Positions 18,295-63,028 of a stretch of DNA of 64,000 nt are shown here, piece by piece. A program made the translations under genes and the position numbers. Source of the DNA: Thermoplasmatota archaeon. Lineage in GTDB: Archaea > Thermoplasmatota > E2 > JACPAO01 > JAHFTW01. Every line of letters starts with the position of its first letter. The first letter of the stretch is position 1. Location of the stretch: NCBI GenBank assembly GCA_035526765.1, contig DATLBS010000009.1, forward strand, positions 7,570 through 71,569, written 5' to 3'. Below the pieces are notes generated by a model. That model did not search any database. It was not told the DNA's origin and was given only the letters and a program-made list of their open reading frames with translations.

Positions 18295-18375
18295 CGATGA
18301 CGGTGCAATCGGTGGCGACCATGGGATTCCGCGGACGTCCATGGATTTCCGCGGACCTCCGTGGCTGTCCATGGA
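18295..18375. repeat. Six 8-bp quasi-palindromes (core CCRYGG) at 10-nt period plus a CACCGAT arm on the minus strand
   Basis: ACCATGGG 18318, TCCGCGGA 18328, TCCATGGA 18338, TCCGCGGA 18348, TCCGTGGC 18358, TCCATGGA 18368. Confidence 0.8.
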
Positions 18376-18457
18376 TGGACCCCCGGTTGAGTCTTGCAGG
18401 GAGCCGGGTGGAACCGGACGCCCGTTGGCCTGACCGTGCGCTTTGGACGTCCTTGGC

Positions 18458-19789
18458 CTAGGCCGCGACGGTGCGCTTCGGCCTGAGCTCGCCCTCGGAG
18501 AAGTATTGGCGGGGATCCGTCAGCTTCCCTTCCAGCGCCGTGACGGCCGCCGTGGCGGGGCTCACGAGGTAGGAGAGGGAGTCGGGGTGGCCCATGCGCC
18601 CCTTGTAGTTGCGGTTGGAGGTGCTGACGCAGACTTCCTTCTCGGCCAGGACGCCGCCCATGCCGCCGAAGCAGGCGCCGCAGGAGCTGGGGTTGAAGAT
18701 GCCGCCCGCCTCCACGATGGTCTTGAGGACGCCGGAGTCGAGGGCGCGGTTGTAGATGGAGGTGGAGGCGGGGAAGACGACGAGGCGCGTGCCTTTCTTG
18801 ACGTGGTTGCCCTTGAGGATGCGCGCGACGGTCTCGAGGTCCTCGTAGCGGGCGTTGGTGCAGCTGCCGATGAAGACCTGGTCGACCTTGGTGACCTTGG
18901 GGGCGGCCTCGCGGACGGGGACGACGTTCTCGGGGCTCTGCGGCATGGCGACGACGGGCTCGAGCTTGCTGCAGTCGAGGGTGTAGGTCTTGGCGTACTT
19001 GGCGTCACGGTCGCTGCGCAGGTCCGCGTGGGTGCGGACCTCGCTGCGGCGGCCGGAGGCCATCGGGGTCGCGTCGAGGTAGCCGAGGGTCTCCTGGTCG
19101 CAGTGGATGACGCCGGCCTTGGCGCCCATCTCGGTCGTCATGTTGGTGAGGGTGAGGCGCTGGTACATCGGCAGGGAGTCGATGGCGGGGCCGGTGAACT
19201 CGACGGCCTGGTACCGGGCACCGTCGTCGCCCATCTGGCCGATGAGGGAGAGCACGATGTCCTTCGACGCGACGGGCTCGACCAATTGGCCCTGCAGCTC
19301 GACCTTGATGGTGGGAGGCACGCGCATCCAGAGCTCGCCGGTGGCGAAGACGGCGGCCATCTCGGTGGGGCCGATGCCGGAGGCGAAGCAGCCGAGGGCG
19401 CCCGCCATGTTGGTGTGGGAGTCGGTGCCGACGACGAGGTCGCCCGGCAGGCAGAAGCCCTCCTCGGCGAGGATCTGGTGGCAGATGCCCTGGCGCCCGA
19501 TGTCGTAGAGGTGGGGCAGGCCGTACTCCTCGCAGAACTTCCGGATGCTCTGGTGCATCTTGGCTGAGGACTCCGAAGAGGCGGGGATCCAATGGTCGAT
19601 GGGGACGACGATGCGGTTGGGGTCCCATACCTTGGTGGCGCCCATCTCCTTGAACGGCTTGACCAGCTGGGCCAGCGCCTCGTGCGCCATGGCGACGTCC
19701 ACCTTGCAGTCGACGACCTCGCCCACGGTGACGGAGGCCGCGCCCGCCTTGAGGGCCAGGATCTTCTGGGGGAGCGTCATCCCTGCCAT
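18458..19789 (-). CDS. leuC: Isopropylmalate/homoaconitate dehydratase large subunit
   Basis: VPIDH, GICHQ, GTDSHT, FIGSCTN, SCGACFG, STSNRNYKGRMG; could be hacA-type. Confidence 0.92.
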   Translation of the reverse strand: MAGMTLPQKILALKAGAASVTVGEVVDCKVDVAMAHEALAQLVKPFKEMGATKVWDPNRIVVPIDHWIPASSESSAKMHQSIRKFCEEYGLPHLYDIGRQGICHQILAEEGFCLPGDLVVGTDSHTNMAGALGCFASGIGPTEMAAVFATGELWMRVPPTIKVELQGQLVEPVASKDIVLSLIGQMGDDGARYQAVEFTGPAIDSLPMYQRLTLTNMTTEMGAKAGVIHCDQETLGYLDATPMASGRRSEVRTHADLRSDRDAKYAKTYTLDCSKLEPVVAMPQSPENVVPVREAAPKVTKVDQVFIGSCTNARYEDLETVARILKGNHVKKGTRLVVFPASTSIYNRALDSGVLKTIVEAGGIFNPSSCGACFGGMGGVLAEKEVCVSTSNRNYKGRMGHPDSLSYLVSPATAAVTALEGKLTDPRQYFSEGELRPKRTVAA

Positions 19790-19861
19790 GCGTTTTGCAG
19801 GGTCCCCCTCCTTAAGGGGCTTTCCGGCGGGGCCTGCGCGCCCACGGTTTTCTGGAGTGCC

Positions 19862-20758
19862 TCAGGCCTGGTCGGGCTTGGCCTGGTCGCGCACGTTGGC
19901 AGGCGCTGCGGGCCTGGCCTCGCGGGCGCGCACCTCGCGCACCGCGGCAGCGACACTCTCGTGCAATGCGCGCGCCAGCATGGCGGCCAGGTGCTGCGTG
20001 ACGGCCTCGACCAAGGCTTGGTCGTCCTGCATGCCCGCCATGCCCGGCGTCCCGACCTTCGCCAAGGGCGCCTGGCCGGCCCCCGCGGTCGTCCGTCCCG
20101 CCGGAGCGGCGATGGCCGGACCCTGGGCTGCAGCGGGGGCAGCCGGCGTGCGCTGGGGGGACTGCGTTGCGTCCGGGGGTGAGATTGCCTCGGGCGGGAC
20201 CTGCGAGCCCGCGGCCTCACGTTCCACTTGGATCACCGGGGCCTGCCTGTCACCGGCAAGGGCCGCCTCCTTCGACCGCATCGCATGCTTGGGGCCCTCC
20301 GCGCCCTCGGGGTGGGCCGCCTCCAGGGACTCGGGTTCCGGCGGGCTCACCACGGTGGGCTGCGCCTGCCGCGCAAGGGCGCCGGCGCTGCCCGGGGCGG
20401 GCGACTGGCCCACCTCGGCGGGCTGCTGGCCCGTGATGGCCTGCGAGGCGGGTGGCGTCATGCCGTCGGCGGCGGAGACCGTCGTGGACCCCGAGCCCTG
20501 TCCCAGGCCGTCGGCGGTGCCTTGGGCTGGCGGGGGGACGTTCTTGCTGGAGCCGCCTGAGGAGGTCGTGGTCGGGTTGGCGCCGGCGGGCGTGGGGCTC
20601 GAGGCGGTGTCGCCTTCCCCCTGCTCCCAGGGCATCACGGTGTGGCCTCCCACCTCGCCGGGGGGACGACTCCGCTGCGCGGCAGGGGCTGCGGCGTGGC
20701 TGGGGATGTCGGGGGAGGGAGTGGCTTGTTCTGGCTGGGGCTGGGCGGCTTGGGGCAT
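19862..20758 (-). CDS. Hypothetical P/A/Q/S-rich disordered protein with C-terminal amphipathic helix
   Basis: Fills the gap between the LVIVD gene and leuC on the same strand; C-terminal DDQALVEAVTQHLAAMLARALHESVAAAVREV; start uncertain. Confidence 0.5.
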   Translation of the reverse strand: MPQAAQPQPEQATPSPDIPSHAAAPAAQRSRPPGEVGGHTVMPWEQGEGDTASSPTPAGANPTTTSSGGSSKNVPPPAQGTADGLGQGSGSTTVSAADGMTPPASQAITGQQPAEVGQSPAPGSAGALARQAQPTVVSPPEPESLEAAHPEGAEGPKHAMRSKEAALAGDRQAPVIQVEREAAGSQVPPEAISPPDATQSPQRTPAAPAAAQGPAIAAPAGRTTAGAGQAPLAKVGTPGMAGMQDDQALVEAVTQHLAAMLARALHESVAAAVREVRAREARPAAPANVRDQAKPDQA

Positions 20759-20892
20759 GCCCCAGGGTGTCTTCGAGGAGCTACATGGAGTGTCCACCAA
20801 AGATGCCCATCTGGAGCGGGGGTCCGAGCGATGCGCTTCAAGCCGCCGGGAAGCGGCGGGAGCGCCGTCTCTTCGGCCTTGCTTGTCGCGGC

Positions 20893-22335
20893 TCAGATCA
20901 TCTTCAGGACGTCCATGCCACGGTTCAGGTCGCCCGTGAACAGGTAGCCTTGGTAGTACCAGGTCTCCCACGTGTTCGAGTTGTCCGCGTACTGGGCCAC
21001 GACCTTGGTGAGGCCGGGGCCTTCGCGCAGGGCCGTGAAGTCCACGACGACGACGCCGGCGCCGTAGAAGCTCATGGCCAGGACGTCCCGCCCCGGGACC
21101 GGGATGAGGCGACCGTGGTGCGCCGTGCAGGAGGCGGCTGCGCCGGAGACGCCCGCCTTCTCGAGCTGGCTTGCCGAGACCCAGCCGACCAGTTGCGGGT
21201 CGGTCTCCGTCGAGATGTCATAGAACCACACAGCGCCGACGGGCGGGCCCACCCGGCCGGCGGGCGTGTCGGCAGCGGCAGTGCAGCCGATGGGGCCGAG
21301 GCCGCCGCCGGACTCATCCCCCACCAGGAGGATCGTGCCATCGGTGGAAAGGCCCGCGTAGTGGCTGAAGGATGCGAGGGAGGCGCTGCCGGAGGGCAGG
21401 CCGTTCACGCCGTGGCCGTACGGCACGCTGACGATCAGCTTCGGCTTGGCGGGGTCGGCCGTGTCGAAGATCTGGGTGTACTCGATGCCGGCGCAGAGGC
21501 CGCGGTACTTGTTCTTCTCGACGGAATTCCAGAAGTAGACGTGGTGGCAGCCGTAGCCGTTGTGGAAGGGCTCCAGGGTGATCACGTTCTCGGGGTCGGA
21601 GAAGTCGTAGATGTCCATGATGCCGGTGCCAAGCGCGGGGTCGACGTTGCCGGGGCCGGCCGCGGGGAAGGAGCCGCCGCCGTCGGAGCGGGCGTTGTAG
21701 ACGAACGGGGTGCCGGGGACGACGCCGACCTTGTGGCTGGGGACCTCGATGGGGGGGAGGGGGCTGGGCTTGCTTGGGTCCGAGATGTCCCAGACGTCCA
21801 GGCCGGAGCCGGTGCTGATCACGGTGACCAGGCGACCGGTGGGGTATGCGATGACGGTGGCGCCGCGGTGGCTGCCCAGCTGCGAGGTGAAGTTCCCCAG
21901 GATCTTCGGGGCGGTGGGCGTCGAGATGTCCACGGTGTAGCTCGGGGCGCCGTAGCCCGGGACGATGGCAATGCTGCCGAACAGCGCGATGCCTGCGCCC
22001 TTGGTGACGCCGGGGGTCTTGACGAGGTGCTGGAGGTCCGCGATGGTGGCAGGGATCGTCGTGGGGTCGATGGGGGCCCAGAATGCCGGGGTGCCGCTGG
22101 ACCTCGAAGGCTGCGCCAGGGTGGGCCAGTTGTAGGCCGGGTGCGCCGAATTCTGCGGGTCCAGGTAGAGGGCAGGACCTGCGAACAGGGCGCCAAGGCC
22201 CTTGTAGAGCGGGCCGGCGACCGCCGCAACCTGACTGACGGGAGGGGTCACAGCGTCCGGGGTGACGGGCGAGTCGATGCAACCGGAGAGGCCCGCCGCG
22301 AGCAGGGCCGCGACGGCCAGAAGTCTCAGGGACAT
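20893..22335 (-). CDS. LVIVD-like beta-propeller lipoprotein, paralog A
   Basis: Lipobox GLSGC; LDVWDISDP, IFDTADP, WETWYYQGYLFTGDLNRGMDVL. Confidence 0.8.
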   Translation of the reverse strand: MSLRLLAVAALLAAGLSGCIDSPVTPDAVTPPVSQVAAVAGPLYKGLGALFAGPALYLDPQNSAHPAYNWPTLAQPSRSSGTPAFWAPIDPTTIPATIADLQHLVKTPGVTKGAGIALFGSIAIVPGYGAPSYTVDISTPTAPKILGNFTSQLGSHRGATVIAYPTGRLVTVISTGSGLDVWDISDPSKPSPLPPIEVPSHKVGVVPGTPFVYNARSDGGGSFPAAGPGNVDPALGTGIMDIYDFSDPENVITLEPFHNGYGCHHVYFWNSVEKNKYRGLCAGIEYTQIFDTADPAKPKLIVSVPYGHGVNGLPSGSASLASFSHYAGLSTDGTILLVGDESGGGLGPIGCTAAADTPAGRVGPPVGAVWFYDISTETDPQLVGWVSASQLEKAGVSGAAASCTAHHGRLIPVPGRDVLAMSFYGAGVVVVDFTALREGPGLTKVVAQYADNSNTWETWYYQGYLFTGDLNRGMDVLKMI

Positions 22336-22360
22336 GGGTGGACCGACTCCAGGGAGTGGA

Positions 22361-22372
22361 TTAAGGGTTGCG
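22361..22372 (-). promoter_or_regulatory. Putative BRE/TATA element CGCAACCCTTAA
   Basis: Ends exactly 25 nt before the ATG at 22335; identical 12-mer lies 25 nt before the GTG at 23859. Confidence 0.6.
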
Positions 22373-22398
22373 TCCGCCCCGCCCCAACCGCGACCTGG

Positions 22399-23859
22399 TC
22401 AGACGAGTTTCAGGACGTCCATGCCGCGGTTCAGGTCGCCCGTGAAGAGGTAGCCCTGGTAGTACCACGTCTCCCACGTGTCGGAGTGGTCGGCCCACTG
22501 CGCCACGGTGCTGGGGAGGCCGCCGCCCTCGCTGCGGACGTCCGTGAAGTCGATGACGAGGACGCCGGAGCCGTAGAAGCTCATGGCCAGCATGTCGCGC
22601 TCCAGGTGCGGGATGAGGCGGCCGTGGTGCGCGGTGCAGCTGGTGGGCGCGTCGCCGCCCGTCGTGGCCTTGTCGGCCTGGGAGGCGGAGTACCAGCCCA
22701 GCAGCTTCGGCTGGGTCTCCACGGAGACGTCGTAGAACCAGACCGCCCCGATGGGCATGCTGACGGCGCCGACACCGGGGATGTCCGCGCGGACGACGCA
22801 GCCGGGCGGGGTGCTGCCGCCGCCGGACTCGTCGCCCATGAGGAGGACCTTGCCGTCGCGCGAGAGGCCGGCGTAGTGGCTGATCGAGAGGGGGATCTGC
22901 GCGCTGCGGTCGGTGGCGTCCAGCGGGGTGCCGCCGGAGCCGAAGGGGACGCTCACGATGACCTTGGGGTGGTACGGGTCGGTGGTGTCCCAGATCTGCG
23001 TGTACTGGATGCCGGCGCAGACGCCGCGCGTCTTGTTGAGGGCCAGGTTGTTCCAGAAGTAGACGTGGTGGCAGGAGTAGCCGTTCTTGAAGTCGGGCAG
23101 CGGGACCGCCTTGGTGGGGTCGCTGAGGTCCCACATCTTCGTGATGGCGGGCGAGGTGTCAGGGTCGCTCGAGGCGCCGCCGCCGGAGGCCGCGTTGACG
23201 ACGATGGGGGTGCCGGGGATGACGCCGACCTTGTGGCTGCGCACGAGCTTGCCGTCGACGTCGGTGAGGGGCGGCAGAGCGGTGGGGGCGGTGGGGTCGC
23301 TGAGGTCCCAGACGTCGATGCCCGCTCCCGTGGAGATGACGGTGACGAGGCGGCCGTCCGGGTAGGGGATGAAGGCGGCGCCGCGGTGGGTGCCGAGGCC
23401 TTCCTGCGGCTTGATCTGCGACAGGACGTTAGGGTGCAGGGGGTCGGAGATGTCGACGATGGAGGTCGGCTGCCCGAAGCCGGGGACGACGACGAGGCTG
23501 CCGAAGATGGCGATGCCAGCACCGGAGGGGACCTTGGGCGCCTGCACGAGGTGCTCGAGGTCGCGGATGGCGGCCGGCAGGGCGATGGGCTCGATCGGGG
23601 CCCAGTACTTCGGGACGGCGGCCCCCACGGCGGGATGGGCAAGCGTGGGCCAGTTGAAGCCGGGGTGGGGCGTGTTCTGGGGGTCGTCGTAGAGGGCGGG
23701 GCCGGCGAACAGCCTGCCGACACCGGAGTAGAGCGGGCCGGGAAGGGCCGGGCCTCCCACGGGCAGGTTCGGCGTTTCGGCGGCCGGGGCAGGACCGGTG
23801 ATGCAGCCGGCCAGCAGGGCGGCCAGCAGGGAGGCGGCGGCCAGGAGCTTGAGGGACAC
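22399..23859 (-). CDS. LVIVD-like beta-propeller lipoprotein, paralog B
   Basis: GTG start, lipobox LLAGC; colinear with paralog A, sharing WETWYYQGYLFTGDLNRGMDVLK. Confidence 0.8.
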   Translation of the reverse strand: MSLKLLAAASLLAALLAGCITGPAPAAETPNLPVGGPALPGPLYSGVGRLFAGPALYDDPQNTPHPGFNWPTLAHPAVGAAVPKYWAPIEPIALPAAIRDLEHLVQAPKVPSGAGIAIFGSLVVVPGFGQPTSIVDISDPLHPNVLSQIKPQEGLGTHRGAAFIPYPDGRLVTVISTGAGIDVWDLSDPTAPTALPPLTDVDGKLVRSHKVGVIPGTPIVVNAASGGGASSDPDTSPAITKMWDLSDPTKAVPLPDFKNGYSCHHVYFWNNLALNKTRGVCAGIQYTQIWDTTDPYHPKVIVSVPFGSGGTPLDATDRSAQIPLSISHYAGLSRDGKVLLMGDESGGGSTPPGCVVRADIPGVGAVSMPIGAVWFYDVSVETQPKLLGWYSASQADKATTGGDAPTSCTAHHGRLIPHLERDMLAMSFYGSGVLVIDFTDVRSEGGGLPSTVAQWADHSDTWETWYYQGYLFTGDLNRGMDVLKLV

Positions 23860-23884
23860 GCGCGTGCGACGGCGGGGCCACGGG

Positions 23885-23896
23885 TTAAGGGTTGCG
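23885..23896 (-). promoter_or_regulatory. Putative BRE/TATA element CGCAACCCTTAA
   Basis: Same 12-mer and same 25-nt spacing as at 22361-22372. Confidence 0.6.
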
Positions 23897-24016
23897 ACGC
23901 CCGGCATGCAACGGTTCGTGTGATGCACGGGAAACGCGAAGCGGGTCCAGGGACGAAGCGATGATGCGATGACTGCGCTACAGCCCTTAAGTAAGGGGAC
24001 GTGGGACAGCGGGTCG

Positions 24017-24316
24017 ATGCGGTCCCGCATGTCGGCGCAGACGACCGGCGCCATCCTGCTGCTGCTGGCCCTCGTGGCATGGGCCGTCGTCTTGGCGGAG
24101 GCCACCATCGTCCACAAGGTGTCGCTCCTCAGCATCGGCTCGGCGGTGCTCATCACCGGCCTCGTGTTCTCGTGGCCCTTCCTGCATGGCGCCCGCGCCG
24201 GCTCCGGCAACATGGTCCTCCTGCGACCCTGCCGCCACTGCGGCACCCTGCCGGTCCCGGCGCTGCAGTTCTGCATCCGGTGCGGCGCCTACCCGAAGGC
24301 GCCCTCCATGGGCTGA
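24017..24316 (+). CDS. Small 2-TM protein with C-terminal zinc ribbon
   Basis: Two hydrophobic helices, then CRHC...CIRC; CCCTTAA about 26 nt upstream; start 24017 or 24029. Confidence 0.7.
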   Translation: MRSRMSAQTTGAILLLLALVAWAVVLAEATIVHKVSLLSIGSAVLITGLVFSWPFLHGARAGSGNMVLLRPCRHCGTLPVPALQFCIRCGAYPKAPSMG

Positions 24317-24390
24317 CGCAGCACGCGAAGCCGCCCCAGGGGGTGCTGCTACCACAATCTCATATAGGGGGCTCCCCGCCTTGGGTGCCA

Positions 24391-24675
24391 GTGTCCCTGA
24401 CCACGCGCCAGGTGGGCTACGGCCTGCTGGGCCTCACCGCCCTCACCGTGGCGCTGACCGCCTACATGGTGGCCACGGCCGACCACGCCATGGCGCCCAT
24501 CCATTATGCCCCGGCGGCCGCCCTCGTCGCCATGATGGCGGTGTGGCCCTTTGCCAACGGGTGGCGGCCATGGACCTCGTCGCTGCCGCAGAGCTGCCGC
24601 GCCTGCGGGACCCAGTGGCTTCCCGGCGAGGCGCAAGGCCAGTGCCCGGCGTGCGGGCAAGTCAGTTCGGCCTGA
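24391..24675 (+). CDS. Small 2-TM protein with C-terminal zinc ribbon
   Basis: Two hydrophobic helices, then CRAC...CPAC; CATATAG about 25 nt upstream of GTG. Confidence 0.65.
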   Translation: MSLTTRQVGYGLLGLTALTVALTAYMVATADHAMAPIHYAPAAALVAMMAVWPFANGWRPWTSSLPQSCRACGTQWLPGEAQGQCPACGQVSSA

Positions 24676-25977: not shown

Positions 25978-26075
25978 CTAACCACAGATTGCACCGATCC
26001 CACAGAGACTGACCGTTCGCCCTCGGCCAGCCTGGCTAGTTCTGTGAAATCTGTGGAATCTGTGGTTCGTTGGGG
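25978..26075. repeat. Short element bounded by inverted 9-nt-periodic arms (AACCACAGATT...AATCTGTGGTT)
   Basis: Left arm AACCACAGATTGCACCGATCCCACAGA; right arm reverse complement AACCACAGATTCCACAGATTTCACAGA; lies between top6B and top6A. Confidence 0.85.
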
Positions 26076-33564: not shown

Positions 33565-34830
33565 ATGGCGGAGACCCACCTCAACCCGTACCAGATGGCG
33601 CTGTCGCAGCTGCAGGCCGTCGCCAAGCGCATGAAGCTGGACCCCAACATCCACGAGGTGCTCAAGCACCCCATGCGCAGCCTCGAGGTCTGCATCCCCG
33701 TCCGCATGGACAATGGCACCACGAAGGTGTTCACCGGCTTCCGCGTCCAGCACTCCATGGCGCGCGGCCCCGCCAAGGGCGGCGTGCGCTTCCACCAGAA
33801 CGTCACCCTCGACGAGGTCAAGGCCCTCGCGATGTGGATGACCTGGAAGTGCGCCGTCGTGGGCATCCCGTACGGCGGCGCCAAGGGCGGCGTCATCGTC
33901 GACCCCAAGGAGCTCACCCACGGCGAGCTCGAGCGCATGGCCCGCCGCTACTTCTCCGAGATCTCCGTCATCATCGGCCCCCAGATCGACATCCCGGCCC
34001 CCGACGTCAACACGAACGCGCAGACGATGGCGTGGTTCATGGACACCTACTCGATGGGGCAGGGCTACGCGGTCCCCGCCATCGTCACCGGCAAGCCCGT
34101 CGACATCGGCGGCTCCGAGGGGCGCGAGAAGGCGACCAGCCGCGGCATCACGTTCTGCGTCCGCGAGGCCGCGAAGGCCATCAAGATGGACCTCAAGGGC
34201 GCGACCGTCGCGATCCAGGGCTTCGGCAACGTCGGCGGCAACTCCGCCCCCCTGCTGAGCGACATGGGCTGCAAGATCGTGGCCGTGAGCGACGTGAGCG
34301 GCGGCATCCACGACCCCAAGGGCCTGGACATCGCGAAGCTGATGTCGCACGTCAAGCAGACCGGCTCCGTCAAGGGCTTCGCGGGTGCCAAGGAGATCAC
34401 GAACAAGGAGCTCCTCGAGATCAAGGTGGACATCCTCGTCCCCGCGGCCCTCGAGGGCGTCATCACGAAGGACAACGCGGCCCGCATCGACTGCAGGATC
34501 CTCGCCGAGGGCGCCAACGGTCCCACGACCCCAGACGCGGACCAGGTCCTCCTCAAGAAGGGCGTCTTCGTCATCCCCGACGTCCTCTGCAACGCGGGCG
34601 GTGTCACCGCCTCCTACTTCGAGTGGGTGCAGGGCCTGCAGTCGTTCTTCTGGACGGAGGACGAGGTCAATGACCGCCTCGACCAGATCATGACGAAGGC
34701 GTTCCACCAGGTGCACGACATCTGGGTCAAGGAGACGGCGAAGGAACCGCTCACGATGCGGCAGGCGGCGTACATGCTGGCCGTGAAGCGCGTGGCGGAA
34801 GCGATCTCGAAGCGCGGCATTTACCCGTAG
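33565..34830 (+). CDS. gdhA: Glu/Leu/Phe/Val dehydrogenase (glutamate dehydrogenase)
   Basis: RGPAKGGVRF, GGAKGGV, DIPAPDVNT, QGFGNVG, AEGANGP, PDVLCNAGGV. Confidence 0.95.
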   Translation: MAETHLNPYQMALSQLQAVAKRMKLDPNIHEVLKHPMRSLEVCIPVRMDNGTTKVFTGFRVQHSMARGPAKGGVRFHQNVTLDEVKALAMWMTWKCAVVGIPYGGAKGGVIVDPKELTHGELERMARRYFSEISVIIGPQIDIPAPDVNTNAQTMAWFMDTYSMGQGYAVPAIVTGKPVDIGGSEGREKATSRGITFCVREAAKAIKMDLKGATVAIQGFGNVGGNSAPLLSDMGCKIVAVSDVSGGIHDPKGLDIAKLMSHVKQTGSVKGFAGAKEITNKELLEIKVDILVPAALEGVITKDNAARIDCRILAEGANGPTTPDADQVLLKKGVFVIPDVLCNAGGVTASYFEWVQGLQSFFWTEDEVNDRLDQIMTKAFHQVHDIWVKETAKEPLTMRQAAYMLAVKRVAEAISKRGIYP

Positions 34831-34839
34831 GTTTTCGGC

Positions 34840-35316
34840 CCGCACGAACCACAGATTGCACAGATTTCACAGAACCTAGCGCGAGCTCGTTTGGTGCACA
34901 GCGGCCCGGGTTCGGTTCCAGACGGCCGAGCGCTTCGCGTTCGGTTCTGGATCATCGACTATCGTACACCCCCTGTGTGGGCGGCGGCGTGGAGCACCAG
35001 AGAAGTTGTTCTTGGTGCGCGGAGCGCACGGGTCTCGAAGCGTCCCCGAGCTTCGAGGGGCGCGCTTTGCGCGCCCCCGTTCCATCGCTTACGTCAACAG
35101 CAACCCCAAGCCGTTTGGTGGCGAAGGTCTTGTCCCTTGAGGGGCCGCAGGCCCCTCGTGTCGCGCGTGTGCACGGAGCGAGCCGTGCTGGCCGTGCCAC
35201 GCGCCGCCGCCGGAGGTGCCAGTGTCATGGATTTTCTCGCTTCGGGGCGACCGATGGGTCAATCCTTGACCGGCAAGCATCCAAGGTCATCTGTGCCGTA
35301 TGTGGTTCAGTTGGGG
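34840..35316. repeat. About 470-bp mosaic intergenic element with CACAGAT arms at both ends
   Basis: GAACCACAGATTGCACAGATTTCACAGA at left, ATCTGTGCCGTATGTGGTTCAG at right; internal blocks shared with 51681-51777, 57647-57785 and 12795-12862. Confidence 0.9.
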
Positions 35317-35381
35317 GAACCGAAACCCGCCGGACCACGCACTGCGTCCCGCTTATCTGGGGGACCCTTCTGCCGTCGCCC

Positions 35382-45405: not shown

Positions 45406-45424
45406 GGGAGCGCGAACGAGCCCT

Positions 45425-45700
45425 CCCCTGAACCACAGATGGCACCGATGGGGCGGATGCCGTCATTGGTTCCATCGCGTCGAGTGTCCTTGGGACGTGC
45501 GTTCTCCAAATCCACCCGGTCGTGCGTTCGACCCATCGGTCTGTCGCAAAACCGCAGCCAGTCAGACGCTGCCGTGGCGCCGACGCCGGAGTCCAGGACA
45601 ACGTGTTGGAAGGGCAAGCGATGGAATGGGGCGCGCGAAGCGCGCCCGCCACAACCCCCAATGCCCTAGGGCAATCTCCGCGTGTTCCGCGCATCCGCGC
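45425..45700 (+). repeat. Mosaic intergenic element between convergent genes
   Basis: GAACCACAGATGGCACCGAT; TCGACCCATCGGTCTGTCG 45528-45546; GTGGCGCCGACGCCGG 45574; GGGCGCGC-GAA-GCGCGCCC 45629-45647. Confidence 0.9.
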
Positions 45701-48564: not shown

Positions 48565-48581
48565 GGCTTCGGCCTGCCGTC

Positions 48582-48806
48582 CGCAGAGAGCGCAGAGAGG
48601 GGGAGTCTTGGCTGGCCCCTGGTTTTCGGCGCCCACCGAACACAGATGGCACCGATGAGGCGGATGCTCCCACTCGCCGGAATTGACCCATCGCTCTGTT
48701 GCAAGGGGGCGCGCGAGGCGCGCCCGCGCAAACCTGTCACGGAACCCACGGAACCTTGGAAACCGAGACTCAAGCTTGGCTTTGCGGTTTCCGTGGCTTC
48801 CGTGGC
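48582..48806 (+). repeat. Mosaic intergenic element between convergent genes
   Basis: CGCAGAGAG x2, GAACACAGATGGCACCGAT, TTGACCCATCG, GGGCGCGC-GAG-GCGCGCCC 48707-48725, CACGGAACCCACGGAA...TTCCGTGGCTTCCGTGG. Confidence 0.88.
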
Positions 48807-48865
48807 CAGGAAGGGGGAGGGCGGCCGCGTGGCCGCGGCATCCGCTGTGAAGTCCTGGGCATCGA

Positions 48866-51410: not shown

Positions 51411-51440
51411 CCAGTCAACCATATGGCCGGGTTTCGCTGC

Positions 51441-51790
51441 CCACTGAACCACAGATGCCACAGATGGACGCAGATACAGGTCCCTTCAGGCTCAACGTTG
51501 GACCCAGAATCTCAACTTCGAGTCTCCAAAGCCACCTGCCTCTGATTTGACGCATCGGTCGCCGTGAAGACCCGAGGCTCAGGTCCTAGGGGTGTGTGTG
51601 GGCGGCGGCGGGTTGTTCCTGCAAGCGATGGCATGGGGCGCGCGAAGCGCGCCCGCCGAAACCAATCCAACGCTGCGGAGCCGTGCGCCCCGCGCACCAA
51701 GAACAATTTTTTCAACCTCCGCGCCCCCGCCGCCGTCCAAGGGGTGTTAGGCTCAACATGATCCAGAACCGAACGCGGAGGGGCCGACCA
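51441..51790 (+). repeat. Mosaic intergenic element between convergent genes
   Basis: GAACCACAGATGCCACAGAT; TTGACGCATCGGTCG; GGGCGCGC-GAA-GCGCGCCC 51636-51654; ATGATCCAGAACCGAACGCG 51758-51777 is the exact reverse complement of 34936-34955. Confidence 0.9.
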
Positions 51791-51837
51791 CCCAGAATGC
51801 TGGAGGCATCACAAGTTAGGAAATGCCGCCCGTGACC

Positions 51838-53752: not shown

Positions 53753-56659
<2,907 letters not shown>

Positions 56660-56867: not shown

Positions 56868-56985
56868 CTCCTCGCGAAGCGACGGACATGCCGGTGCGTG
56901 GCAGGCCGAGCGGCACAGCGTCTCCTGCCGCTGCCCAAAAACGTCCAACGCAGGTTTATGCTCCGCTTTCTGGATGGTCCCCTGG

Positions 56986-57429
56986 ATGCGGTCGGTCACC
57001 GGAGGGTTGTTCCTCGTGAGCGTCAAGATCCGCGACGAGCCCGGCGCCCTCGCCCGCGTCGCCCGGCTGCTGGCGGCGCACAACATCAACCTGCGCGGCC
57101 TCATGGTGGACGCCGCCGGCATCAACCTCCTGACGCAGTCCCTCCCCACGGCCCGGGCGGCGCTCGACGACAGCGACCTGCGCTACGAGACGCAGGAGGT
57201 CCACGAGGTGCTCCTGGAGGACCACCCCGGCACGCTGGCGGACCTGTGCGAGCGCCTGGCCAACGCCGGCATCAACATCGTGACCGCCTTCGGCGTCAGC
57301 ACCGGCAGCGCGGGCCGCATCTACATCAACGTGAGCGACCTCCCGCGGGCGGCGCCCATCATCGACACCGTGAGCCAGGGTCCAGCCCTCGTGCATTACC
57401 GGTTGGGCCGCATCGGCCCGGCGCCCTGA
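56986..57429 (+). CDS. Tandem ACT domain protein
   Basis: DEPGALARVARLLAAHNINL and DHPGTLADLCERLANAGINI; TTTATG about 26 nt upstream. Confidence 0.85.
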   Translation: MRSVTGGLFLVSVKIRDEPGALARVARLLAAHNINLRGLMVDAAGINLLTQSLPTARAALDDSDLRYETQEVHEVLLEDHPGTLADLCERLANAGINIVTAFGVSTGSAGRIYINVSDLPRAAPIIDTVSQGPALVHYRLGRIGPAP

Positions 57430-57559
57430 ACCTCAGCCTCGCCTTTTCCAGCTGTTCGCCCGCGTGTTTCGTCTCAATCGGCCTGCATCGCATGGTTCCC
57501 TTTGTCGAGCACTCCCGGGGCGTTCTCAGGCCGTCATGCGCTCCGCGTTCGGTTCCGAC

Positions 57560-58135
57560 GGCTCGCTCCCGACCTTCAAACGACGGTCGACCACGTTGCG
57601 TCGTGCGGTCTACGACCGCACATGGCATTCCCCTCTGACTTACCGGACACGCGCGACATGAGGGGCCTGCGGCCCTTCAAGGGACAAGACAAACACTGGG
57701 TTCTGGACCACCGACGTTCCATCACTCCTGTGTGGGGGCGGCGTCCAGCACCAGGAAAATGCTTGTGGTGAGCAAGCGCACGGCCCCAATTGCACGTGGA
57801 TAGGACGGAAAGTGCGGAGGCACTCCCCCGTTTTTTGCCGCGGAACCCACGGAAGCCCACGAAGTTAGACGTGAGTTCGATTCCCGTGAGTTCCGTGCCT
57901 TCCGTGGCTGGTTTCGGCGGGCGCGCTTCGCGCGCCCCATGCCATCGCTCGCAACATCGTCTCGTCGTGCCGGAGCACGGCGTCGTCGTCACAGGCGTGT
58001 TGACCGGTTGCGGGTTTACGACAGACCGATGGGTCGATTCGCGTCGAGGGATTTTGGAGGCCCGGCATAGGCGCTGACAGCAGGTGGGCGCCTCCATCTT
58101 CCCCAATCTGTGCCATCTGTAGTTCAGTGGGGGCC
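57560..58135 (-). repeat. About 580-bp mosaic intergenic element between convergent genes
   Basis: On the minus strand: GAACTACAGATGGCACAGAT, TCGACCCATCGGTCTGTCG (58019-58037), GAA hairpin (57919-57937), CACGGAA arms, GCA and GTA hairpins (57660-57678, 57603-57621). Confidence 0.92.
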
Positions 58136-58157
58136 GAAGCCCTGCCAAGAACTCGGG

Positions 58158-59102
58158 TCACTTGTTGCGGTACGGCGCCCAGGAATCCACGAGGGTCTCC
58201 GGCGTGAACGGCAAGGACACGATGCCCGTCCTCGCGTAGCGGTACAGCGCCGTCTGGTAGAGACTGCCCACCATCGACGCGAAGAGGCCCATGGCAAGGG
58301 AGGCGACGACGATGACGCAGCCTGCCGTCAGGACGAGGGGGAACATCGCCTTCGCCGAGACGATGCCTGCCGCCATCAGCAGGGGCAGGCCCATCATGAA
58401 CAACAGGAACGGCAGGAAGACAAGGAGCATCGGGACCATGACCGCGAGCCCGATCGTCACGATGCCCGCCGTCGCCTTGCCCCACTGGTCACGGGCCAAC
58501 GCGGTGGACGTGCGCAAGGCGCCGATGGCGCTGCGCTCGCCCTCGACGACGAGGACCGGGATGACGAAGTAGGCAGCCACGGCCCACGCGAGCGCGCCCA
58601 AGGTCTGGAAGGCCTGACCAATGTACGGGATGATGCGCAGCCGGTCCAGCAGTTGGCCGACCACCGCCAGCAGGCCGGACACGAGCATGGCGAGGAGGTT
58701 GTAGCGCGCGATGGGGCCAAGCTGTGCCACGGCCCGGCGCCAGGCGTCCTTCTTCCGGCCGGGACGGCCCTCCAGGCGCTCATGGGCGGCGTGGCAGAGC
58801 GCTGCGTTGAACAGGCTCGTCAGCACCATGAGCGGATACATCAGGGGCATCGCGAGGAAGAACAGGAAGGGACGCGCGCCCCGCGGGACGTGGAGCAGGT
58901 TCAGGAAAGAGGGCCCCAGGGCAAGAACGCCCCAGACCACGACGCCCACGAGCACGGCCGCGAACGCCAGCATGCTGGCAAGGCCCAGCAGGGGGAACAC
59001 CCAGAGGTCGCGCTCGGTGCGCAGCATGCGCCAGGACTGCCCGAAGATCGCGCGGCTCGTCGCGTAGCGCGCCCTGAACGGCACACGCACCTTGCCAGCC
59101 AT
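58158..59102 (-). CDS. Multi-TM membrane protein (DUF6159-like)
   Basis: SWRMLRTERDLWVFPLL, YFVIPVLVVEG..AIGALRTS, YQTALYRYA. Confidence 0.72.
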   Translation of the reverse strand: MAGKVRVPFRARYATSRAIFGQSWRMLRTERDLWVFPLLGLASMLAFAAVLVGVVVWGVLALGPSFLNLLHVPRGARPFLFFLAMPLMYPLMVLTSLFNAALCHAAHERLEGRPGRKKDAWRRAVAQLGPIARYNLLAMLVSGLLAVVGQLLDRLRIIPYIGQAFQTLGALAWAVAAYFVIPVLVVEGERSAIGALRTSTALARDQWGKATAGIVTIGLAVMVPMLLVFLPFLLFMMGLPLLMAAGIVSAKAMFPLVLTAGCVIVVASLAMGLFASMVGSLYQTALYRYARTGIVSLPFTPETLVDSWAPYRNK

Positions 59103-59329
59103 GCGGGGAGAACCCCTCGCCCTGGCTTGAATTTTCCTGGCCCTTGGCCGGTGCCCCGCGCATGCGGCGGACTGCGTCGCGCCCCAGGGGCGGCGCAGCG
59201 AATGGGTTAAGAGAGCCCCCCGAGTCGGCGCGCGTGCGCCCCTTTGGGGCGCGCGGGGTTCTGCCCTGGGATTCCCTGGCTCCGGCGTCCGCCGGAGCCG
59301 CATCGGGTGTCCTGAGGACACCCTCGCCC

Positions 59330-59402
59330 GGTCCTGTAGTGTAGCGGCCAATCATGGTGCCCTCTCACGGCACCGACCCGGGTTCAAATCCCGGCGGGAC
59401 CA
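59330..59402 (+). tRNA. tRNA-Glu (anticodon CTC), CCA not encoded
   Basis: Acceptor GGTCCTG/CGGGACC, anticodon stem GTGCC/GGCAC with loop CTCTCAC, T-loop GGTTCAAATCC. Confidence 0.96.
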
Positions 59403-59493
59403 TTCGCCTGGCTCCGCGCGGCCTCGCGCCCCGGCATGACGCCTGCCCATGGCCTTGCTGCGTGGCAACCCTTAACCTGGGGCCGCCGCTGGA

Positions 59494-59748
59494 ATGGGCG
59501 TGGTGGCGCCCCTTGGTCGCGATGCCCGCAGGTTGGACCTGCAGGCGCGCTTCAACCAGATGAGCGTGCGGCGGGAGGAGCTGGAGCGGCGCTACCCCGG
59601 CAGCTTCGGCATCGGGGGGATGCCGCCCAACCCCTTGGGCAAGCGCGCCCCCGACGGCCTCGTGGAGGAATGGAGGATCCTGTGCGATGCCCTGGCGAAG
59701 GTGGAGGCCGACCTCGCCACCCTGGTCCCCGAGCCCCCGAAGGCTTGA
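59494..59748 (+). CDS. Small hypothetical helical protein
   Basis: GCAACCCTTAA at 59465-59475 upstream; start 59494 or 59500. Confidence 0.55.
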   Translation: MGVVAPLGRDARRLDLQARFNQMSVRREELERRYPGSFGIGGMPPNPLGKRAPDGLVEEWRILCDALAKVEADLATLVPEPPKA

Positions 59749-59773
59749 ACCCGCGGCTTGGGCTCGCGGCGGC

Positions 59774-60586
59774 GTGGGCGAGCCTGCACGCATCGTGAGC
59801 CTCGTGCCCAGCCACACCGAGTCGCTGCACGCCCTCGGCCTCGCGGCCCGCGTCGTCGGCCGCACCCGCTTCTGCATCCACCCGGAACCCTGGGTCGGCA
59901 CGGTGCCCGCCGTCGGCGGCACGAAGGACGCCAGGCTGGACCGCATCCTCGCGCTGCGCCCCGACCTCGTGGTGGCGGACAAGGACGAGAACCCGAAGGC
60001 GCTGGTGGAGGCCCTGCAGGCCGCAGGGGTGGAGGTGCTTTGGTCGGAGATCGACGCCGTCGAGGACGCCGCACGCTTCCTGGAGGCGCTGGGCCGCCGC
60101 TGCGGCGCCGACCAGGCCGCCACGGTCCTGGCCAGGGACCTCCGCGCCGCGATGGCCGAGGTCGCGGTCGCGGGCGGAGGTGGGCCCGGCGTGCCCGTGT
60201 TCTGCCCCATCTGGCATGCGCCCTGGATGACGTTCGACCGCACCGCGTACCCGAGCGCCATGCTGGCTGCCGTCGGCCTACGAAACGTCTTCGCGGACCA
60301 CGCGGGACCCAAGTACTTCCAGGTCGCGGACGGCGAGGTGGCCGCAGCGGGTGCCCAGTGGTCGCTGCTGCCCTCAGAGCCGTTCCCCTTCCACCGCCAC
60401 CCCGTCGACACCTCCGGCCTGGGGCCGGCGGGGCATCCCGAGCGGGTGCGCGTCATCGACGGCGAGGCGCTCACCTGGTTCGGGGCGCGCACCGCGGCGG
60501 GGCTGCGCGAGCTGGCCGGTGTGGCGCGCTCGCTGGTCAGTCCTGGCGGCGGCGCTGCAGCAGGGCCGCGCAGCCCAGCAGGCTGA
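59774..60586 (+). CDS. Helical-backbone metal receptor (BtuF/TroA-like substrate-binding protein)
   Basis: RIVSLVPSHTESL, VGRTRFCIHP, VGGTKD..LDRILALRPDLVV..KDEN, IDGEALTWFG. Confidence 0.85.
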   Translation: MGEPARIVSLVPSHTESLHALGLAARVVGRTRFCIHPEPWVGTVPAVGGTKDARLDRILALRPDLVVADKDENPKALVEALQAAGVEVLWSEIDAVEDAARFLEALGRRCGADQAATVLARDLRAAMAEVAVAGGGGPGVPVFCPIWHAPWMTFDRTAYPSAMLAAVGLRNVFADHAGPKYFQVADGEVAAAGAQWSLLPSEPFPFHRHPVDTSGLGPAGHPERVRVIDGEALTWFGARTAAGLRELAGVARSLVSPGGGAAAGPRSPAG

Positions 60587-62582
60587 CCAGGGCCAGCAAG
60601 CCTGCGCCGGGGCTCGACCGCGAGGCGCCTTCCACGGCCTTGGCGCGCGCCGCCGCGTCGTAGGGCCCGAGGCCACCGTGCAGGTCCTCGAAGGCGGCGC
60701 CGCTCCCGCTGCCGCCGGCGCCGCCGGCGGAGCGCGTGGCCGACGCGGTGCCGTAGGCGGCGGAGCCGTCGGCGCTGGCGGCCATGGGCGCTTCCTTGGC
60801 GCCCGCGGAGGCGTACATGCAGCATCCGCCGTTGGATTCCTGGCCCGGCGTCAACTGGATGTCGAAGGGGGTCTCGCCGGACTTCAGGGTCAGCATGCCG
60901 ACCCAGTGGAGGTGGCCCTCGGCGTAGGCGTAGACGTCCATGTGGCCGCTGCGGACCTTGATGCTGTAGGAGCCGTCCTTGTCGGTGGTGGCGGAGCCGT
61001 ACCCGTAGCCGTCCTGGCTGCTGAAGCTCACCTGGGCGTTGGGGATCGCCTTGCCGGTCGAGGCATCGACGACGTAGCCGGAGACGACGGCGTCGGGGGC
61101 AGGCCGCTGCTCGAGGCGGACCGTCACCTTGGTGGTGGCGTCCGCGGGCAGGTCGAGGACCTGGTTCCAGGCGTAGTGCTCGGGCCGGCAGGGCCTGTAG
61201 TTGCCATCGGTCTGGGGGCAGTCGCGGTAGGCGTCGTGGCCGACCGAGAGGACCGTGTAGCCCGGGGTGACGTCGCCGCTGAAGGTGCCGTCGCTGTTGA
61301 CGCGGATCGCGCAGCCGTTGCTGTAGCCGCCCGGGTAGGGGTAGGAGACATCGCTGCTGGTGGGGCTCTCCGGGTCGCTGGGCGGCGTCTCCTGCGCGGG
61401 CTTGGGCGGGGAGTCGTCGGCCTGGGAGGCGTCCTGGCTGCACTCGTAGAGGCCGTAGCGGGGCGACTGCACGCCGATGTAGAGGGCCGAGAGGCCCTTG
61501 CCGGTGGAGGCGTCCACGACGCGGCCCTCGATGTGGGCCGTCTTGGGGGGGAACTTCTGCATCTCGATGTCGTGCGCCACGGATGCGCCCGTCACCTCGA
61601 CGTTCGCGTAGTGGTTCGCGTAGCCTTCGTGGTACACGTTCATGCTGACGCTCACGCCGCTTGCGACATGGATGCTGTAGCGGCCCTCGCGGTCGGTGAC
61701 CGTGGAGTTGTAGCCGTTGCCGTAGTAGGGGCGCGCGACCGCCATGCCGGAGCTGGGGCTGGACGCGGAGGCGGGGGAGGCGGTGCCGGAGGAGGTGGAG
61801 GTGTCGTACGCGTGGCAGCAGCCGCCGTAGCCGCCGTAGCTGTACACGTTGATGGTGAAGCCGGGCAGGGGCGTCCCGTCCTGGTCGCGGACCACGCCGT
61901 GCAGGGTGGCGTCCTGCCTGGGGGCTTCGGGGACGCGGAGGGCGACCCCCTGGGTGCCGTCCACGAACTGGCTGACCGAGGCCAGCTGCATGCCGTCGGA
62001 GTCGACCGAGAAGGTGCGCTCGCCGGACTGGGTCGTGACGGTGAAGGCGCCGTCGGCGTCCGTGTACGTGTCGGTCATGCCGAAGTCGTTGGCGCAGCAC
62101 ACCGTGACGTGGGCCTTCGGCAGGCCCTTGCCGTCCTGGTCGGTGACGGTGCCCTTGACGTCGATCGACCTGGGGACCAATCCGACGCGGCGTTCGGTGG
62201 CACCCTGGATGTTGAGCTGGAACTCCATGGTCTCGTAGCCCACGCGCTTGAGCTCTAGGGTGTACGTGCCTGCCGTGAGGTCGGAGCCGGAGAACGTGTA
62301 GGTGCCGTTCTGGTTGGTGGTGCCGGACTTGTCGACCGCGAGGGCGCCCGTGCCCCCGACGCCGGCCTTCGTGAGGTGGAGCTGGACGTTGCCCAGGGCG
62401 GGGCCGCAGCCGGCAGCGTCGCCGGGCTCGGGCGCCTGCACGTAGTTGACGTTGCGGTCGCGCGAGCAGACGTCGACGTCGAGGGAGTTGGACACCTGCG
62501 CATCGATGGGGTGCGGCACGAGGGCGATGGCGCCCAGCAGGAAGACGGCGGTGAGGACGAGGGCGGACGGCTTGCGGTCCAT
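60537..62582 (-). CDS. Carboxypeptidase-regulatory-like repeat surface protein with RSSP-TM-RRR anchor
   Basis: Signal peptide; repeated G.V.D..TGK.IP.A.V / TTD.DG.Y modules; ends RSSPGAGLLALVSLLGCAALLQRRRQD. Confidence 0.82.
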   Translation of the reverse strand: MDRKPSALVLTAVFLLGAIALVPHPIDAQVSNSLDVDVCSRDRNVNYVQAPEPGDAAGCGPALGNVQLHLTKAGVGGTGALAVDKSGTTNQNGTYTFSGSDLTAGTYTLELKRVGYETMEFQLNIQGATERRVGLVPRSIDVKGTVTDQDGKGLPKAHVTVCCANDFGMTDTYTDADGAFTVTTQSGERTFSVDSDGMQLASVSQFVDGTQGVALRVPEAPRQDATLHGVVRDQDGTPLPGFTINVYSYGGYGGCCHAYDTSTSSGTASPASASSPSSGMAVARPYYGNGYNSTVTDREGRYSIHVASGVSVSMNVYHEGYANHYANVEVTGASVAHDIEMQKFPPKTAHIEGRVVDASTGKGLSALYIGVQSPRYGLYECSQDASQADDSPPKPAQETPPSDPESPTSSDVSYPYPGGYSNGCAIRVNSDGTFSGDVTPGYTVLSVGHDAYRDCPQTDGNYRPCRPEHYAWNQVLDLPADATTKVTVRLEQRPAPDAVVSGYVVDASTGKAIPNAQVSFSSQDGYGYGSATTDKDGSYSIKVRSGHMDVYAYAEGHLHWVGMLTLKSGETPFDIQLTPGQESNGGCCMYASAGAKEAPMAASADGSAAYGTASATRSAGGAGGSGSGAAFEDLHGGLGPYDAAARAKAVEGASRSSPGAGLLALVSLLGCAALLQRRRQD

Positions 62583-62682
62583 GGAGTGGACATGTCCCTT
62601 CGGACTATATCAACCCCGGTCGGCAGGCGGGGGTTTCCCCAACCATGGGGGGAGCCGCGTTGGGCCCTTCGGCGCACCCGCC

Positions 62683-63028
62683 GGAACCACAGGATGCCAC
62701 CGATGGAGAGGATTCCCTGGCTTTCCACAGATGGAGAGGTGCCCCCCGGCCTTCCGCCCACGCCTCCGGTAATTTTCCTCTAACAATCTCCAAAGGCGCC
62801 GGGTCCAAGCCACCTTCCACGATCGACCCATCGGCCTGTCGTGAACCCGCGACCCGTCCAACCTGCTGTGGCGCCGACGCCGGCGTCCAGATACAACGGG
62901 TTGGGACAGTTGGCGATGGCGTGTGCGCGCGAAGCGCGCCCGCCGAACCTGGCCAGGAACGCGCGGAGACCGCGGAAATCCTGGCAGTTGCCATGCGCTG
63001 CGGGGGGGTGTGTCCGCGTGTTCCGCGA
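62683..63028 (+). repeat. Mosaic intergenic element between divergent genes
   Basis: GAACCACAGGATGCCACCGAT; TCGACCCATCGGCCTGTCG 62823-62841; GTGGCGCCGACGCCGG 62868; GCGCGC-GAA-GCGCGC 62925-62939; CGCGGA arms. Confidence 0.88.

Follow-up and report, generated by a model that had tools for sequence, protein, structure and literature searches.

Phased heptamer arrays at gene ends in a soil Thermoplasmatota genome and their association with GxxExxY nuclease genes

The window analyzed in this study is a stretch of 64,000 nucleotides (C9:7570-71569) from a 2.24-Mb metagenome-assembled genome (MAG) of a soil Thermoplasmatota archaeon, designated G000 below (43 contigs, 69% GC, ~90% complete). It contains noncoding elements that abut the 3' ends of genes and terminate in arms, which consist of heptamers such as CACAGAT repeated every 9 nt. 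Arms of the same layout bracket nearly all of the GxxExxY (PF13366) nuclease genes inspected in the 13 genomes of the genus, and the elements of the window appear to be gene-less relatives of these nuclease cassettes.

Repeat elements in the window and in the genome

A first-pass annotation had reported that CACAGAT runs recur about ten times in the window. A search with CACAGATNNCACMGAT, allowing up to two mismatches, returned 11 matches compared to 0.46 expected, and none of 100 shuffles reached 11. The CACAGAT-NN-CACMGAT matches are at 25983, 25992, 26040 (minus), 26049 (minus), 34850, 34859, 35289 (minus), 45434, 48641, 51450, and 58106 (minus). Two of the individual sites that the annotation had listed are loose variants only: 18316 on the minus strand is a CCGCGGA/CCATGG array with a period of ~20 rather than a typical CACAGAT arm, and 62686 is degenerate (CACAGGAT..CACCGAT). 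Inverted arms were present, as described, at both ends of 25978-26075 and 34840-35316, and the CRCGGA sister units formed inverted pairs at 1924-2005, 48738-48804, 57839-57906, and 62962-63036. Pfam confirmed the identities of the genes gdhA, tgtA, cdc6, ribA, top6B, and top6A. The elements of the window are as follows.

1924-2005: stand-alone hairpin of the sister family, an inverted pair of CGCGGRR units with period 9
18295-18345, minus strand: loose variant array, TCCGCGGAA..CCATGG at ~20 nt and then CACCGAT-TG-CACCG, between two minus-strand genes
25978-26075: gene-less hairpin of 98 bp, flanked by the stop of top6B (26103, minus strand) and the start of top6A (25959); left arm AACCACAGATTGCACCGATCCCACAGAG, right arm the reverse complement of AACCACAGATTCCACAGATTTCACAGAAC
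34831-35330, minus strand: noncoding composite foldback of ~500 bp that begins directly after the gdhA stop TAG; A-type arm 34847-34876 (plus), GC clamp 35059-35075, box GACCCATCGGTC 35249-35260 (minus), degenerate arm 35289-35316 (minus)
45406-45695, plus strand: composite after tgtA; GATG-type arm 45431-45462, box 45530-45541, GC clamp 45630-45646, inverted CRCGGA arm 45677-45691
48565-48810, plus strand: composite after cdc6; two-unit CGCAGAG arm ~17 nt past the stop, GATG-type arm 48638-48670, box 48685-48696, GC clamp 48708-48724, CACGGAA hairpin 48738-48804
51411-51797, plus strand: composite after ribA; arm 51447-51475, box 51549-51560, GC clamp 51637-51653
57839-58151, minus strand: composite after the DUF6159 gene (58158-59102, minus strand); arm 58097-58124, box 58024-58035, GC clamp 57920-57936, CRCGGA hairpin 57839-57906
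62668-63040, plus strand: composite with the degenerate arm at 62686; box 62825-62836, GC clamp 62924-62940, CGCGGA hairpin 62962-63036

The arms share one layout, in which a loosely conserved outer segment, GYTT(T)CGssCCCnaCCk, is followed by AACC and then by two to three heptamers with 2-nt spacers. In G000, TTCG was found after 32% of the stop codons that bear arms compared to 7% of other stop codons, and thus the outer segment is part of the element rather than of gene ends in general. A generic terminator motif of the organism was considered for this flank and rejected, as the motif is absent after genes without arms. Within the composites, the arm is followed by the box GACCCATCGGTC, a GC clamp (GGCGCGCGAAGCGCGCC), and a nested CRCGGA mini-hairpin. 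The modules have this order at 45406-45695, 48565-48810, 51411-51797, 58151-57839 (minus strand), and 62668-63040, and the reverse order at 34831-35330. Therefore, the CACGGAA/CGCGGA pairs at 48748, 57839, and 62958 represent the distal module of the CACAGAT composites.

The enrichment extended to the whole assembly, as the annotation had proposed checking. It had 223 outermost arms with the pattern AACC-CACAGAT-NN-CACAGA(T)-NN-CACAGA(A/T). A scan that ignored the core sequence and asked for three similar heptamers at a fixed period detected 218 intergenic arrays at period 9 compared to 7-13 at periods 8, 10, and 12. The dominant cores in this core-blind scan were CACAGAT and CRCGGA(A/G), the latter being the "sister unit" of the annotation. 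Arms facing each other within 600 bp formed 54 pairs, of which 39 form hairpins with lengths of 54-99 bp (mode, 65 bp) and the other 15 span 155-561 bp. The 65-bp elements have two distinct arm types, ...CACCGAT..CACAGAACC and ...CACAGATGACACAGATTG, and are thus copies of one asymmetric unit. The longer elements (~450 bp) are noncoding foldbacks. Most of the G000 population consists of gene-less forms. Iterated nhmmer searches identified 146 distinct loci of at least 150 nt with a total length of 49.6 kb (2.2% of the genome). The identity of each copy to its best partner had a median of 81% and a maximum of 95.7%, and the sequence between the arms (the cargo) is mosaic, with lengths of 263-592 nt. 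Cargo copies that are otherwise ~80% identical keep the blocks GCGATGGAATGG-GGCGCGCGAAGCGCGCCCGCCGAAAC and CCGTGCGCTCCGCGCACCA nearly invariant while the 20 nt between them varies; in the window, near-invariant blocks are located at 35059-35075, 45630-45646, 51637-51653, and 57920-57936.

Comparison of the two arms of an element gives ~84% identity for the heptamer cores, and specific mismatches between the arms are conserved. The similarity of the 2-nt spacers is not higher within an element (0.40-0.43) than for arms of different elements (0.44 ± 0.03). Together these values point to selection on the cores and not on arm-to-arm pairing, which favors recognition of reiterated sites by a protein over a selected hairpin. 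The suggestion of the annotation that the arrays are iterated binding or recombination sites fits these results as far as sequence analysis can reach, the cores being conserved and the spacers not complementary.

Three further arrangements were observed in G000. At C10:32663-32756, three arms, each with an outer segment and two units, lie in direct tandem with a 33-nt period before a full three-unit arm, which indicates that arms can multiply head to tail. At C4:54066-54120 and 54246-54313, two short hairpin elements are located 180 bp apart with near-identical left flanks (AGCTCCGGAAGAGTAGTCCTGTT), which looks like a local segmental duplication that included the element. A third, smaller family has CTCAGAT units in a 3 x 9 inverted layout with a different outer flank (GGGCATCC/GGCAGCC), and is found at C10:104017-104133, C14:26678-26731, and C32:5197-5255.

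The annotation had placed sense-strand arms within about 15-80 nt of the stop codons of six genes, and all six hold. The distance from the stop to AACC is 16 nt for gdhA, 25 nt for tgtA, 36 nt for ribA, 35 nt for top6B, 33 nt for the DUF6159 gene at 58158, and ~73 nt for cdc6, after which the second, CGCAGAG arm begins 17 nt past the stop. Genome-wide, 123 CACAGAT arms followed a stop in sense and 59 preceded a start (68% after stops), compared to 48 ± 3.5% after stops with random intergenic placement (maximum, 58.5% in 500 trials). This bias bears out the genome-wide part of the claim, but the fixed orientation after stops does not stand as a separate property, because arms always point into the element and elements abut gene 3' ends. 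Stop-to-AACC distances had a sharp peak at 15-17 nt, which places the outer segment directly against the stop, whereas the distances of start-facing arms were spread over 16-190 nt. Convergent spacers held 40% of the arms versus 19% of the intergenic DNA (~2-fold enrichment), and divergent spacers held 8% of the arms versus 23% of the intergenic DNA (~3-fold depletion). The orientation of the whole asymmetric composite relative to neighboring genes was only weakly biased (64:44).

No coding signal was detected in the foldback at 34831-35330. The predicted folding of the whole element is strong (z = -10.9), and the box lies ~25 nt downstream of a CTCCAAA motif in the cargo. RNAalifold found no consensus structure in 59 copies of the best-conserved 210-nt module, and the full-length cargo alignment was too mosaic for covariation analysis (1308 columns for ~450-nt elements). 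The conserved hairpins of the cargo never vary and are therefore uninformative on RNA structure either way. Known RNA families were rejected, as 34800-35360 had no Rfam match at E ≤ 1 and the sole Rfam (gathering threshold) or ARAGORN match in the window was a tRNA-Glu(CTC) at 59330-59402.

GxxExxY cassettes and the top6 spacer

Every one of the 13 genomes of the genus has GxxExxY genes (one to eight each). At ~25 of the 27 loci inspected, judged by eye, the gene is bracketed by inverted arms with 9-nt phasing. The heptamer is particular to the locus (e.g., CACCGAT, CGCAGAT, CACGGAA, CACTGAA, CACGGGG, or GCCGGAT), and many loci have a GGCCAAYSG-like box just inside one arm. A full cassette consists of an arm, a box (GRCCAAYSG-like), a gene for a ~125-amino-acid PD-(D/E)XK (Cas4/RecB-like) nuclease, and an inverted arm. 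Because the window elements have no GxxExxY open reading frame (ORF), they are gene-less relatives and not cassettes. No gene other than those for GxxExxY nucleases was found between such arms in the 13 genomes. The association with GxxExxY genes that the annotation had put forward is thus supported, including a cassette in the orthologous top6 spacer described below; the association with four-helix-bundle genes that it had also mentioned is not, as G000 had no TIGR02436 match.

The catalytic residues D70, E79, and K81, the residues E30 and Y33, and the GxxExxY motif are invariant in 19 sequences, within an invariant set of H, E..Y, D, and E-x-K. A structure model built from the 19-sequence alignment had a predicted local distance difference test (pLDDT) score of 90, compared to 44 for a single-sequence prediction. 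The best fold match was Cas4 SSO0001, followed by alkaline exonuclease, the nuclease domains of AdnAB/AddAB, MGME1, RecE, and lambda exonuclease. A sequence search of the PDB returned no relative. Many of the GxxExxY ORFs (L036, L039, L040, L042, L045, L050, and L055) read through into the downstream arm, so that their C termini are short Ser/Val/Ala-rich repeats encoded by heptamers, such as ...SVTSVSSV. In a maximum-likelihood phylogeny of 27 proteins, heptamer labels clustered, requiring 18 changes compared to 21.6 with shuffled labels, and 0 of 200 shuffles were as low.

The abundant arrays also differed between genomes, each of which has its own dominant heptamer family. CACAGAT arrays numbered 303 in G000, 131 in G007, 109 in G012, 70 in G005, 59 in G001, and 8 in G009. 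CACGAAT arrays numbered 262 in G001, 139 in G009, 113 in G012, 19 in G000, and 1 in G005. Reversed-pattern controls gave 0-3 matches. A large family and a gene flanked by the same heptamer occur together in G001 and G009 (CACGAAT) and in G005 and G007 (CACAGAT).

A six-frame hidden Markov model (HMM) search of G000 recovered only two GxxExxY loci. The gene at C24:59505-59915 is intact (1.6e-36 in the TIGR04256/PF13366 test) and is bracketed by CRCGGAG arms; the CRCGGA population of G000, with 207 arms, retains an intact cognate gene. The locus at C5:31430-31732 lacks arms, and a 1-nt deletion breaks its N-terminal helix by a frameshift; the three proteins that it matches best have C[AG]CAGAT arms. 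The frameshift in this best candidate for a CACAGAT-type gene, together with the age of the copies (median identity, 81%), suggests that the CACAGAT population of G000 is orphaned. The possibility that the ~450-bp cargo is a decayed GxxExxY gene or another ORF was rejected, given that the six-frame search found these two loci only; consensus translations of the cargo were Arg/Pro/Ala-rich junk.

The spacer between top6B and top6A shows how elements differ at one position among species. Its contents are as follows.

G003-G006: empty; the genes overlap or abut (TGATG / ATGA)
G000: CACAGAT hairpin
G011: CRCGGAT hairpin
G012: CACGAAT hairpin
G007: solo CACGGA arm
G008: GCTGAAT element
G001 and G009: cassette of ~600 bp with three CACGAAT units in the arms at both ends and an antisense ORF

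The nearest relatives of G000 are G001 and G009 (91-92% DNA identity in top6A), and the cassette ORF of G001 matched TIGR04256 "GxxExxY" at 2.3e-36 and PF13366 PDDEXK_3 at 1.2e-34. In empty alleles, GGAGGCGAATCCTGATGGC occurs once and includes the top6B stop as well as the ribosome-binding site and start of top6A. In every filled allele, it is present as two diverged copies that flank the element, the left ending top6B and the right providing the ribosome-binding site and ATG of top6A. These flanks look like a target duplication of ~19 bp. The derived left copy, GGRGGCGAGTGA, is common to G000, G001, and G009, which suggests that the top6 insertion was probably a single ancestral event. In G000, G001, G009, and G012 the heptamer at top6 is one of the abundant families of that genome. 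If there was a single insertion, the different heptamers in different species suggest that arms may have been replaced or converted in place. In element-free species, the last codons of top6B contain the ribosome-binding site of top6A. In element-bearing species, the top6 operon is interrupted by 100-600 bp, and the nuclease gene inserted in G001 and G009 runs antisense to it.

Differences from the nearest relatives were also found at other gene ends of the window. The gdhA element of G000 is absent at the same gene end in G001 and G009, and the ribA element is absent after ribA in G001, while G009 has a different solo arm there. Among the species compared, the ~450-bp cargo is essentially confined to G000, and these elements were thus gained or replaced after the split from the nearest relatives. 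No plasmid relatives of the cargo were found, and the public runs that held the locus were soil DNA only.

Longer duplications were seen at two gene ends, where 48-50 nt of the 3' end of a gene, including the stop, are duplicated around GC-rich hairpin inserts. In G007 (C10:187600-188200, L024), an insert of ~130 nt is flanked by two copies of the terminal 48 nt of gdhA, TAG included, and a separate 45-bp 2x2 CACAGAT hairpin follows the second copy. In G001 (C199:150-750, L073), a hairpin-rich insert of ~75 nt lies between two diverged copies of the terminal ~50 nt of cdc6, TGA included, and a nested CAYGGAT / CGCGGAT element comes next. Elsewhere in G001 (C73:3500-4100, L027), an AT-rich stretch of ~300 bp directly after gdhA, in a genome of ~69% GC, precedes a secreted-protein-like ORF and may be foreign DNA.

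Possible explanations for the arrays

The anatomy of the elements and their association with GxxExxY genes are well supported; the mechanism is unproven. From the anatomy, enrichment, placement, gene-family link, co-variation of heptamer and protein, and presence or absence between species described above, we infer binding, cleavage, and a route of spread. The explanation that we favor, with a probability of about 0.6, is that the arms form the inverted termini of a population of repeats akin to GxxExxY cassettes and that the heptamers are read by the cognate nuclease, which spreads or replaces the elements. The phased heptamers would serve as reiterated recognition sites, with several protomers binding per arm. 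Action of the nuclease at the arms, followed by host repair or replication, would lead to copying or replacement of the element, possibly through homing-like repair, hairpin-primed synthesis, or long staggered cuts. Such copying or replacement would account for the dominance of a particular heptamer in each genome and for the different heptamers of sister species at one locus. Elements might persist only where they are harmless, flush with stops and mostly between convergent genes. At least some insertions appear to duplicate ~19-50 bp of the target, so that the stop upstream and the ribosome-binding site and start downstream would survive.

Several points weigh against this explanation. The ~450-bp cargo is not derived from a nuclease gene and carries very conserved blocks, and thus a function other than selfish spread is possible. 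Simple inheritance of a gene together with its arms would also produce co-variation between heptamer and protein. Across the 54 G000 elements there was no significant flank repeat (p = 0.13), as would be expected if the elements are old. The first-pass annotation, which had found no target-site duplication, was only partly right, as ~19 bp appear to be duplicated at top6, the one site with empty alleles. No within-population insertion polymorphism was seen, the Logan metagenome contigs being too fragmented to show empty and filled alleles. As the MAG is ~90% complete, an intact CACAGAT-type gene may have been missed. Genome-wide gene calls for G000 were made with a purpose-written simple caller.

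A broader form of the nuclease explanation is tentative and, on balance, doubtful. In this form, each GxxExxY protein would act as a minimal Cas4-like nuclease that recognizes its own 9-nt-phased heptamer array, and nuclease and arrays would together constitute a self-propagating system in archaea and bacteria. The system would colonize gene ends via 19-50 bp target duplications that regenerate the stop and the next ribosome-binding site and start, and would rewrite resident arrays to the current heptamer, as at top6, where one ancestral insertion would have become CACAGAT in G000 and CACGAAT in G001 and G009. Decay of the gene would leave orphaned populations of hundreds of arms.

An alternative is that the elements are modules useful to the host at gene 3' ends, such as bidirectional terminators, stabilizers of mRNA 3' ends, or insulators, comparable to repetitive extragenic palindromic (REP) sequences in enterobacteria, that selection retains there and that GxxExxY genes are occasional passengers. 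The position of the arms flush with stops, their enrichment between convergent genes, the strong folding of the whole element (z = -10.9), and interior blocks such as GGCGCGCGAAGCGCGCC that are far better conserved than their surroundings are consistent with such a role. However, the arm spacers are not complementary, conserved mismatches persist, and the 59 copies yielded no consensus structure with RNAalifold. Furthermore, elements are missing after the same genes in the nearest relatives, the heptamer differs among species and tracks the nuclease, and the bracketing of nuclease genes would be unexplained. It seems unlikely that this is the primary explanation, although a 3'-end role can coexist with reading by the nuclease as a secondary, acquired role.

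The phased cores with free spacers resemble reiterated protein sites, which might be bound by a host regulator, chromatin factor, or segregation factor unrelated to GxxExxY. The presence of hundreds of CACAGAT arrays in G000, yet no intact gene flanked by CACAGAT, is in line with such a protein. Depletion of the arrays from divergent, promoter-bearing spacers and the wholesale change of heptamer between species that are 91% identical in coding DNA argue against it, and it would not explain why ~25 of 27 GxxExxY genes are bracketed. A host factor of this kind thus seems quite unlikely.

The elements might also be ordinary miniature inverted-repeat transposable elements (MITEs) that a classical transposase (DDE or HUH) from another locus mobilizes in trans. 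They would fit this class in that they end in inverted repeats, occur in many copies between genes, fall into size classes of 65 bp and ~450 bp, and may duplicate their target. However, no Y1/HUH transposase was detected in the G000 genome, and no arm pair encloses a transposase-sized ORF, pairs 2.5-6.7 kb apart being adjacent separate elements. GxxExxY nucleases were the only genes seen between such arms in the 13 genomes, with not every transposase family, nor every DDE family, covered by the searches, and insertion sequence (IS) elements usually duplicate far less than the 19-50 bp apparently duplicated here. Mobilization of this type is therefore improbable. It is highly improbable that the ~450-bp units are genes for structured noncoding RNAs with the arms as part of the fold, a proposal that draws on the strong predicted folding, the conserved blocks, and the box ~25 nt downstream of CTCCAAA, given the lack of an Rfam match even at E = 1 and of a consensus fold or usable covariation, the mosaic copies of 263-592 nt, the weak orientation bias relative to neighbors (64:44), and the absence of the unit from sister species.

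Comparison with known systems

MITEs depend on autonomous IS elements, and transposons such as Mu, Tn7, and IS21 have reiterated subterminal binding sites. The elements described here are similar in their terminal inverted repeats, in the excess of gene-less derivatives over full-length forms, in the several site repeats per end, and in nested insertions. They differ in that there is no recognizable transposase and in that the target duplication is 19-50 bp where seen, and unproven genome-wide.

Intervening sequences of 23S rRNA with S23p/four-helix-bundle ORFs, such as that of Coxiella (PMC4990558), are likewise small selfish cassettes (~0.4-0.6 kb) in which one small ORF is bracketed by inverted repeats. 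However, G000 had no TIGR02436 match, the elements of this study lie outside rRNA, and their ORF is of another family.

In the system of REP sequences, their inverted doublets (REPINs), and REP-associated tyrosine transposases (RAYTs), hundreds of extragenic repeats, mostly inverted doublets, are located at gene 3' ends, and a low-copy enzyme gene is flanked by repeats (PMC3116915, PMC3337134). Dispersed extragenic inverted doublets are also found here (223 arms; 54 pairs within 600 bp, 39 of them 54-99 bp long). In both cases, the repeat sequence is specific to lineage and enzyme and the system is largely vertically inherited. However, the enzyme here is a ~125-amino-acid PD-(D/E)XK nuclease and RAYT is a Y1 HUH transposase, for which a PF01797 search had no match in G000 and was positive in 6 of 14 control genomes. 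The unit here is a nonpalindromic heptamer iterated two to three times at 9 nt and REP is a palindrome led by GTAG. The host here is an archaeon.

Ssn (GIY-YIG) proteins are site-specific nucleases for single-stranded DNA that are associated with NTS/SRM hairpin repeats and for which cleavage has been demonstrated (PMC11893778). Similarities include a small nuclease gene that lies between copies of its cognate repeat, hundreds of scattered copies near other genes, and repeat variants that co-vary with nuclease variants. In contrast, the flanked genes here encode PF13366 PD-(D/E)XK proteins with a Cas4/RecB-like fold, the arms are phased heptamers rather than one ~30-bp hairpin, and cleavage is a proposed activity.

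GxxExxY (PF13366) is a very large protein family, the function of which was listed as unknown in a 2012 survey of PD-(D/E)XK proteins (PMC3424549). In the searchable literature the family is mentioned only in passing and repeats are not mentioned; no description of a nuclease-plus-repeat system was found. The genus is a compact natural experiment, with 13 genomes that trace one locus through empty, cassette, hairpin, and solo-arm states and with hundreds of gene-less arms per genome that carry a heptamer matching a resident nuclease. The repeats, which make up >2% of the genome, break metagenome assemblies, and at gene ends they can mislead the annotation of 3' untranslated regions or terminators. 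If the nuclease does read the arrays, a set of small nucleases would have short specificities that can be read from flanking DNA, and the arrays and their enzymes would constitute a third system of enzyme and dispersed repeats beside RAYT/REPIN and Ssn/NTS, the first of these in archaea and one that employs a different fold.

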